Assembly: GCF_057098645.1 (NCBI RefSeq)
Contig: NZ_CM169472.1
Strand: one strand, 5' to 3'
Length of the DNA stretch: 64,000 nt
The position numbers and the translations under genes are program-made. Of the stretch, positions 6,548 to 7,216 are shown piece after piece; positions within the stretch are counted from its first letter, which is position 1; each line of letters begins with the position of its first letter. A model generated the notes under the pieces. It saw only the letters and a program-made list of their open reading frames with translations. It had not been told where the DNA came from and ran no database searches.

Positions 6548-7216
6548 ATGCCCGTCAAGGATTTGACGGGCATTACTGCAAAGGACGCGCAAATGTTATC
6601 TGTAGTTAAACCTCTTCAGGAATTTGGTAAGCTCGATAAATGTTTGTCCAGATACGGTACGCGCTTCGAGTTTAATAATGAAAAGCAAGTTATATTTTCC
6701 AGTGATGTCAATAACGAAGATACTTTCGTTATTTTAGAGGGGGTTATCTCTCTGCGTAGAGAAGAAAACGTACTTATCGGTATTACCCAGGCTCCTTATA
6801 TTATGGGGCTGGCTGATGGTTTAATGAAAAACGATATACCATACAAATTAATATCAGAAGGAAATTGTACGGGATATCATCTACCAGCCAAACAAACCAT
6901 TACGCTTATTGAACAAAATCAACTCTGGCGAGACGCTTTTTACTGGTTAGCCTGGCAAAATAGAATTCTGGAATTACGCGACGTGCAGCTCATTGGGCAT
7001 AATTCCTACGAACAAATCCGCGCAACATTATTATCAATGATTGACTGGAATGAAGAATTGCGATCACGTATTGGTGTGATGAATTATATCCATCAACGTA
7101 CACGCATATCGCGTTCTGTCGTCGCAGAAGTTCTCGCTGCTTTGCGTAAAGGCGGCTATATCGAAATGAATAAAGGCAAACTGGTCGCTATCAACCGTTT
7201 GCCTTCAGAGTATTAA
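6548..7216 (+). CDS. yaiV: Uncharacterised putative regulator YaiV (alternative start at 6593)
   Basis: 222-aa ORF in the yaiV position; AT-rich codon usage by eye; the first ATG lies inside a perfect palindrome and the second ATG (6593) has a better SD (AAGGA). Confidence 0.75.
   Translation: MPVKDLTGITAKDAQMLSVVKPLQEFGKLDKCLSRYGTRFEFNNEKQVIFSSDVNNEDTFVILEGVISLRREENVLIGITQAPYIMGLADGLMKNDIPYKLISEGNCTGYHLPAKQTITLIEQNQLWRDAFYWLAWQNRILELRDVQLIGHNSYEQIRATLLSMIDWNEELRSRIGVMNYIHQRTRISRSVVAEVLAALRKGGYIEMNKGKLVAINRLPSEY

Follow-up and report, generated by a model that had tools for sequence, protein, structure and literature searches.

A conserved, non-coding RNA hairpin of terminator type between ehaB and iprA (yaiV) in Escherichia coli and related genera

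Tandem and leaky intercistronic terminators set unequal expression of the genes inside an operon, and intercistronic stem-loops of the repetitive extragenic palindromic (REP) kind, of which malE-malF is an example, stabilize mRNA. At the 5' end of a message, a hairpin with the geometry of that in the ompA 5' untranslated region blocks 5'-end-dependent attack by ribonuclease E (RNase E) and RppH. In the leaders regulated by CsrA (glgC, cstA, and pgaA) one GGA is found in a hairpin loop and a second over the Shine-Dalgarno sequence (SD); the CsrA consensus from systematic evolution of ligands by exponential enrichment (SELEX) is RUACARGGAUGU, and the spacing reported for dual-site binding ranges from 10 to 63 nt. 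Here we analyze a palindrome in a 64,000-nt stretch of contig NZ_CM169472.1 (the whole stretch is referred to below as the window), where it occupies positions 6546–6575 on the plus strand, between ehaB (formerly yaiT), which encodes the autotransporter adhesin EhaB, and iprA (formerly yaiV), which encodes a hydrogen peroxide resistance inhibitor (names as in current RefSeq records). The palindrome is a conserved, non-coding, and previously unannotated RNA hairpin of the terminator type, an ordinary kind of element, and is called hairpin 2 below, hairpin 1 being a second stem-loop directly after the ehaB stop codon.

With intrinsic terminators, including the tandem and leaky intercistronic ones, hairpin 2 shares a perfect G/C-rich stem, a short loop, a place on the sense strand past a stop codon, and compensatory evolution of its arms, and its orthologous copies also share the tract of 5–7 U and the calls made by a consensus scan. 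The E. coli copy differs from such terminators in that the U-tract is mostly lost, an SD follows 5 nt on, and the loop GGA is conserved. Like the REP and other stem-loop stabilizers, it is a stable hairpin between co-oriented genes that could guard the upstream message from 3' exonucleases, but it is present in one copy per genome, has no Rfam family, and is unrelated to them in sequence. If a promoter predicted in the spacer is real, hairpin 2 would lie 0–1 nt from a 5' end, as do the stabilizing stem-loops of the ompA type; it differs from these in that no transcription start site (TSS) is mapped at the hairpin in E. coli K-12 and in that the U-run of other genera would terminate the transcript. 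Its likeness to CsrA/RsmA-repressed leaders consists of two motifs separated by 24 nt, GUCAAGGAUUUG in the loop and GCAAAGGAC at the SD, with ANGGA invariant in the E. coli clade, whereas the 13-bp stem, the loss of the GGA from several genera that keep the stem, and the lack of an entry in the accessible part of a crosslinking and immunoprecipitation (CLIP) supplement set it apart.

The hairpin and the selection on its pairing

The original prediction had drawn attention to a perfect inverted repeat with 10-nt arms at 6548–6573. Direct reading of the letters agrees with it, although the true repeat is longer: a repeat finder delimits perfect 13-nt arms, TAATGCCCGTCAA (6546–6558) and TTGACGGGCATTA (6563–6575), separated by the loop GGAT (GGAU in RNA) at 6559–6562. 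No other perfect inverted repeat in the window is as long, and no other combines arms of 13 nt or more with a loop of 3–10 nt. None of this class arose in 30 dinucleotide shuffles, where repeats with arms of 10 nt or more averaged 0.4, counts that exclude a chance palindrome. Folded alone as RNA, hairpin 2 has a free energy of −19.8 kcal/mol, its 13-bp stem including six G-C pairs, and the fold of the surrounding 121 nt (6500–6620) has a z of −3.3 relative to shuffles. Its 3' edge is 17 nt upstream of the ATG at 6593 and 5 nt upstream of the SD at 6581–6585. Over positions 6535–6600, 5338 of 5389 E. coli records carry the same sequence, the median being one place per genome and the maximum two. 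An Rfam scan of the palindrome gave no match below E = 0.5, all hits being at noise level; this result and the single copy per genome exclude a repeated element resembling REP or bacterial interspersed mosaic elements, or a known RNA family.

For comparison among species, 80 orthologous loci were retrieved, one per species (L004–L083), and the true iprA start was located in each. Pairs were counted over a 10-pair core in an alignment of 40 species, in which 96.4% of the core stem cells are paired, compared with 88.1% in shuffles and 31–45% in controls in which the partner was slid; none of 500 shuffles matched either the observed pairing or the covariation score. Compensatory (two-sided) changes occur in seven of the ten stem pairs, giving variants such as CCCGCCA/TGGCGGG, CCCACCA/TGGTGGG, CTCGTCA/TGACGAG, AAGCCC/GGGCTT, and TTCCCGCCA/TGGCGGGAA. 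RNAalifold, given no structure, returned the same helix with six of nine pairs compensated. Among Escherichia, Citrobacter, Salmonella, and Raoultella, identity to E. coli is 95% in the stem and 97% in the loop, versus 68–71% in the flanks and 40% at the 4-fold degenerate sites of iprA. By this comparative evidence, the pairing of the palindrome stem is under selection.

One-sided changes leave a G·U pair on the plus strand in 16 cells, versus five cells in which G·U would form on the minus strand only, and three of those five are at loop-closing positions. Counted as independent events, plus-strand G·U changes within the RNAalifold helix number ~11 versus two (p ~0.02), and over all ten pairs 11 versus four, a difference that is not significant. 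This strand bias is supportive of a plus-sense RNA, not decisive. The distance between the arms also varies across genera, from 3 nt (Kluyvera) to 8 nt, and together with the G·U bias this variation favors a plus-sense RNA hairpin over a DNA operator.

Terminator form in other genera and the link to ehaB

The E. coli element has two attributes of an intrinsic terminator, a stable G/C-rich stem-loop (13 bp, backed by covariation) and an appropriate place, downstream of the end of ehaB on the plus strand; the ehaB stop codon is at 6503–6505 and hairpin 2 begins 40 nt later on the same strand. Across the 78 evaluable loci hairpin 2 was found in ~47, lying 16–23 nt before the iprA ATG in all save Buttiauxella (34 nt). 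In Kluyvera, Pseudocitrobacter, Yokenella, Phytobacter/Kosakonia, Superficieibacter, and Enterobacter sp. kpr-6 the 8 nt that follow it contain 5–7 T, as in the U-run tails of Kluyvera (TTTTTTGC), Pseudocitrobacter (ATTTTTAC), and Yokenella (ATTTTTAT), and a consensus terminator scan flagged it as a plus-strand terminator in Kluyvera and Pseudocitrobacter. Tail scores in the style of TransTermHP, calculated with our own re-implementation of the formula and set against a threshold of ~2.5, were 5.0 in Kluyvera, 3.4–3.7 in Pseudocitrobacter, Yokenella, and Phytobacter, 3.1 in C. werkmanii, 2.8 in Salmonella, and 2.48 in E. coli. The leader tail (6576–6592, plus strand), which holds the SD AAGGA at 6581–6585, is T-rich in orthologues and in E. 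coli retains a decayed U-tract (CUGCAAAGG). The widespread U-run form of hairpin 2 is a canonical terminator, which we take to be ancestral, with the E. coli clade carrying a version whose U-tract has decayed.

A terminator on the minus strand, acting on antisense transcripts or on read-through from ampH, was considered and set aside, as the G·U pattern favors the plus strand and the A-rich flank is limited to one clade. In E. coli the minus-strand tail score, worked out by hand, is ~3.0 owing to the A-rich 5' flank, slightly above the plus-strand score.

Most ehaB-iprA spacers hold two hairpins. Hairpin 1 (6501–6529, plus strand, identified by RNA folding), with the core TTCTTC (6508–6513) and GAAGAA (6519–6524), is weak and A/U-rich in E. 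coli and has no U-run. Elsewhere, in Enterobacter, Kluyvera, Leclercia, and others, it consists of a G/C-rich stem followed by a T-run, the canonical form of a terminator, and it was flagged by the scan in Kluyvera. Its arms have also changed in a compensatory manner among orthologues (TTTCTC/GAGAAA, TTCCTC/GAGGAA, and GGGGAGG/CCTCCCC). Where hairpin 1 is strong (Enterobacter, Lelliottia, and Leclercia), hairpin 2 has been lost, which fits redundancy of tandem terminators.

The partnership of hairpin 2 with ehaB is also seen in the gene order. Of the 78 evaluable loci, 73 encode a C-terminal barrel of the EhaB type immediately before iprA, and one of the other five is too short to judge; the distance from the end of ehaB to iprA is 70–110 nt in almost every genus (~90 nt here). 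A preprint from 2026 that deals with SeaB, the Salmonella orthologue, independently finds seaB always located between hemB and iprA. In Kluyvera cryocrescens (L042), K. intermedia (L043), and K. genomosp. 1 (L047) the whole autotransporter gene is deleted, so that hemB lies ~500 nt upstream of iprA; L042 and L047 keep both of the former ehaB 3' hairpins but have the only internal A·C mismatches seen in the stem of hairpin 2, and in L043 the palindrome has collapsed. The loss of ehaB with decay of the stem, the redundancy of the hairpins, and the orthologues with U-runs thus tie hairpin 2 to the termination of ehaB transcription.

The explanation we favor, with a confidence that stops a little short of even, is that the palindrome is a leaky intercistronic terminator or attenuator and an RNA-stability hairpin between ehaB and iprA. 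In the proposed mechanism, a canonical Rho-independent terminator would have been the ancestor of what is now the second of two tandem hairpins past the ehaB stop codon. In E. coli the 13-bp stem is intact and the U-tract has decayed, and the element would now be a leaky terminator or attenuator that passes only a fraction of ehaB transcription into iprA. Hairpin 2 may also shield the 3' ends of ehaB mRNA, and the two roles together would hold the regulator IprA far below the adhesin EhaB. We infer both the termination or attenuation in E. coli and the co-transcription of ehaB and iprA. In the founding iprA paper of 2016, Herman and colleagues are said to have placed iprA in a two-gene operon. 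On the favored explanation, an unannotated and strongly conserved cis-element must shape the level of IprA relative to EhaB/SeaB, and IprA is a poorly understood regulator that affects oxidative-stress resistance, catalase, and fimbrial expression; no general concept is altered by the finding.

Several observations weigh against attenuation. The E. coli tail, ATTACTGC, has three T in the 8 nt past GGGC, fewer than the ~5 or more U in 8 expected of a U-tract, and the consensus scan did not flag hairpin 2 in E. coli, nor did it in C. werkmanii. The loop GGA is invariant across the clade of Escherichia, Citrobacter, and Salmonella (loop identity 97%), for which a plain terminator has no need, and the distance from the hairpin to the iprA ATG varies by 6 nt, compared with ~34 nt for the distance to the ehaB stop codon. 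The predicted sigma-70 promoter described below would start transcription at ~6547, at the base of hairpin 2. The invariant GGA, the fixed distance to the ATG, and the SELEX promoter are no less compatible with an iprA leader function than with attenuation. Finally, no 3' end is listed at K-12 3944xx–3945xx in the tables of the Adams 2021 Term-seq or the SMRT-Cappable-seq studies, a missing signal that is weakly informative because the locus is silenced by H-NS and barely expressed and yaiT is disrupted by IS3 in K-12.

Predicted promoter signals, a possible iprA leader, and a possible DNA operator

The spacer contains a predicted sigma-70 promoter (6511–6540, plus strand) composed of TTCACT (6511–6516), 18 nt, and TTTAAT (6535–6540), and a site for the RpoD holoenzyme was found by genomic SELEX in the yaiT-yaiV spacer, in a region described as bound by H-NS (Shimada et al., 2014; PMC3946193). 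A CyuR-binding motif, GAAgAAATacTgGtAATTTAaTC (6519–6541, plus strand), is predicted at position −75 by a motif scan only (PMC11408624, Table 1), and in the same study yaiV was up 4.5 log2 (~22-fold) with cysteine. Between the two hairpins, a −10-like box, GGTAATTTAATC (6530–6541), is conserved in Escherichia, Citrobacter, Raoultella, and Salmonella, and coincides with the TTTAAT predicted as −10 and with the right half of the predicted CyuR motif. The box may also serve RNase E as a single-stranded, A/U-rich site between the two hairpins.

In the K-12 Cappable-seq data there is no plus-strand TSS between U00096.2 coordinates 393395 (window ~6258, in ehaB) and 395178, the coordinate offset of 776 having been confirmed via Table S3 of Nakahigashi et al. 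(2016). The nearest mapped plus-strand TSS able to feed iprA is at U00096.2 393395 itself (score 15.6), in the 3' part of yaiT/ehaB and ~290 nt upstream of the palindrome.

The main rival to attenuation, less probable on present evidence, assigns hairpin 2 to the 5' leader of an mRNA specific to iprA, transcribed from the TTCACT-18-TTTAAT promoter and starting at ~6547, with the hairpin at its extreme 5' end. There the hairpin could protect iprA mRNA against 5'-end-dependent decay and, alone or in addition, the loop GGA and the SD GGA could constitute a two-site operator at which CsrA or another RNA-binding protein acts on IprA translation. Such a leader would account for the RpoD holoenzyme SELEX peak and predicted promoter within the spacer and for the retention of GGTAATTTAATC in the E. 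coli clade, and the ~22-fold induction by cysteine, with the predicted CyuR motif, implies a local promoter. Moreover, the U-tract is degenerate in exactly the clade that has the conserved box, and the hairpin keeps a nearly constant distance from the ATG. Against this, no K-12 Cappable-seq TSS is found at the predicted promoter, and in Kluyvera, Trabulsiella, Yokenella, and Pseudocitrobacter, which have lost the loop GGA and kept the stem, a strong terminator would abort a transcript starting at its base.

The case for CsrA in particular is divided. Of 40 species, 26 have the GGA in the loop, among them all 20 species of Escherichia, Citrobacter, Salmonella, and Raoultella, where the bases flanking it vary (AAGGA, ACGGA, and AUGGA); both GGA are in a CA(A)GGA context and are 23–24 nt apart (loop at 6559–6562, SD GGA at 6583–6585). 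The SD GGA is nevertheless weak evidence for CsrA because the motif is required as an SD anyway, and the 13-bp stem is far longer than those of typical CsrA hairpins. In the accessible part of the supplement text of the CsrA CLIP and ribosome-profiling study of Potts (2017) yaiV is absent, a weak point given its low expression.

The attenuator and leader models are not mutually exclusive. It is conceivable, though we think it improbable, that in Escherichia, Citrobacter, and Salmonella the ancestral ehaB terminator has been exapted as an iprA leader, its GGA loop and the SD GGA serving CsrA or another RNA-binding protein as a two-site operator. If true, the Csr network would gate translation of IprA, which regulates oxidative-stress resistance and fimbrial genes, and would do so without regard to ehaB.

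Much less probable is a third alternative, in which the palindrome acts as double-stranded DNA, as an operator for a dimeric factor (IprA in autoregulation, or FNR) that overlaps the iprA transcription start. A perfect 30-bp palindrome does adjoin a regulator gene, its core, GCCCGTCA, is unusually well conserved, and a palindromic operator would likewise show changes in both arms. FNR binding at yaiV has been seen only in the absence of H-NS and StpA, a published chromatin immunoprecipitation signal that emerges once both are removed. However, the arms lie between 3 and 8 nt apart, and a dimeric binder would not tolerate arms that are 3 bp closer, as they are in Kluyvera; arm sequences have been swapped with pairing retained, in place of the fixed spacing and conserved half-sites of an operator, and a G·U bias on one strand is meaningless for duplex DNA. 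FNR sites have their half-sites in the order TTGAT-N4-ATCAA, whereas the center of the palindrome has them inverted, TCAA-N4-TTGA, and an FNR site was not adopted for this reason.

The iprA start codon and the neighboring genes

The iprA coding sequence (6593–7216, plus strand; 207 codons plus stop) encodes a CRP-like winged helix-turn-helix regulator, according to the NCBI Prokaryotic Genome Annotation Pipeline (PGAP), the K-12 record NC_000913.3, and the family NF008810. The list of open reading frames for the window includes a 222-codon frame that opens within hairpin 2, at the ATG at 6548, which the original prediction had regarded as the annotated yaiV start. That description holds for the 2006-era annotation and not for current RefSeq records, which use 6593. 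As had also been proposed, the ATG at 6548 lacks an SD (the upstream letters, aatctaaata, contain nothing SD-like) and the ATG at 6593 has a good one (AAGGA at 6581–6585, with 7 nt of spacing), and for the latter start RefSeq, the protein family, and ribosome profiling agree. PGAP calls a 207-residue IprA from the equivalent of window position 6593 in all three E. coli genomes opened, and in NC_000913.3 iprA (394506..395129, NP_414909.2) has the same start. The NCBIfam equivalog NF008810 matched with 458 bits (cut-off 359), its profile positions 1–207 corresponding to residues 16–222 of the long frame, in which M16 is encoded at 6593. The 120 best homologues, with few exceptions, are 207–208 residues long and cover 91–93% of the 222-residue query. 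Table S3 of Nakahigashi et al. (2016) records a shift of the yaiV start by 45 nt from the 2006 record (393685, U00096.2) to the 2014 record, and places yaiV in the manual-inspection class "3. 2014", that is, with tetracycline ribosome-profiling signal "at 2014 initiation site". The start at 6593 is therefore correct but not new, databases and ribosome profiling having corrected it in 2014–2016. The 222-residue form persists in older entries, e.g., AAG54721.1.

The 15-codon N-terminal extension of 2006-era yaiV (6548–6592, plus strand) is spurious. We tallied its fate in 40 distinct hairpin-bearing sequences, one per species. At the position of the first ATG, an ATG is present in 31 of the 40, in frame with iprA in 15 of those, and followed by an open frame in 12, so that in 28 of the 40 species either the frame does not match, a stop codon intervenes, or the ATG is missing. 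Escherichia albertii, whose protein is 94% identical, has an in-frame TAG inside the extension, Raoultella and two others have TAA immediately upstream of the real ATG, and in C. gillenii AAG replaces the first ATG. The distance from the first-ATG position to the real ATG is 43–49 nt across species, constrained in length and not in multiples of three. Loss of frame, stop codons, and loss of the ATG, together with the family profile and ribosome profiling, exclude a coding N-terminus, and the 45-nt extension is non-coding. The losses in 28 of 40 species and the compensatory changes in the stem bear out the suggestion in the original prediction that the palindrome is more likely terminator-like than coding.

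It had also been suggested that conservation of the 15 residues among orthologues would refute this suggestion. The amino acids do look conserved but are not coding, and it is the palindrome arms that produce the likeness. Long gene calls begin with MPVMDMTGI in a protein of 74% identity and MPVMQMAGI in Trabulsiella (52%), compared with MPVKDLTGI here, and "MPV" and "GI" appear conserved as amino acids only because they are read from the two nucleotide arms of the palindrome. We give almost no credence to the last alternative, that the ATG at 6548 serves as at least a minor start for a 222-residue IprA isoform and that the coding sequence is self-complementary by accident: the frame is open from 6548 in E. 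coli and databases hold gene calls of 222/223 residues with the apparently conserved "MPV...GI", but no SD precedes that ATG, which is buried in the −19.8 kcal/mol stem, the extension is broken in 28 of 40 species (including by the TAG of E. albertii), the tetracycline ribosome-profiling signal is at the 2014 site only, and the NCBIfam profile starts at residue 16. Database entries for a 222-residue YaiV thus have a false N-terminus of 15 residues, and they provide a cautionary case of a conserved nucleotide palindrome that mimics amino-acid conservation in mis-called orthologues.

The locus is ordered hemB, ehaB (yaiT), iprA (yaiV), ampH, and sbmA, and the 401 nt tested (6400–6800) are 100% identical to E. 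coli O145 strain RM9872. In the window ehaB is intact (3617–6505, plus strand; 962 residues ending in KYTW, from the list of open reading frames and RefSeq). IS3 splits yaiT into a pseudogene in K-12 MG1655, and ATCC 25922 has a truncated copy beside an IS3 transposase gene; the intact ehaB therefore identifies the window as coming from a non-K-12 strain.

The EhaB barrel (last 300 residues) is mostly 75–93% identical across genera, compared with 43–79% for the adjacent IprA. A contig assigned to "Chryseobacterium sp. 18061" (L076) carries an Enterobacteriaceae ehaB-iprA locus that hardly differs from the one in "Citrobacter sp. 18056" (L077) from the same study, and the former assembly is probably mislabelled or contaminated. 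The most distant copy of hairpin 2, in Buttiauxella izardii (L083, 2915–2965), has the fully compensated arms AATGCCTGTC...GACAGGCATT, lies 34 nt from the ATG, and is directly preceded by TGGTTATAAT, a near-consensus extended −10; this locus has no hairpin 1.

Downstream, iprA (plus strand) and ampH (minus strand) are convergent, and their stop codons abut at 7214–7219 with zero intergenic space, which leaves no room for a terminator belonging to either gene. The sole terminator-like site near this junction is weak, on the minus strand, and within the 3' end of iprA (7183–7196). The iprA coding sequence also contains a perfect inverted repeat at 6710–6733, AATAACGAA/TTCGTTATT, with 9-nt arms and a 6-nt gap. 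Other perfect inverted repeats in the window, with 11–12-nt arms and loops of 4–6 nt, are at 60758–60785, 47056–47082, and 35218–35245; three with arms of this length are far above the shuffle expectation, and they are probably terminators.

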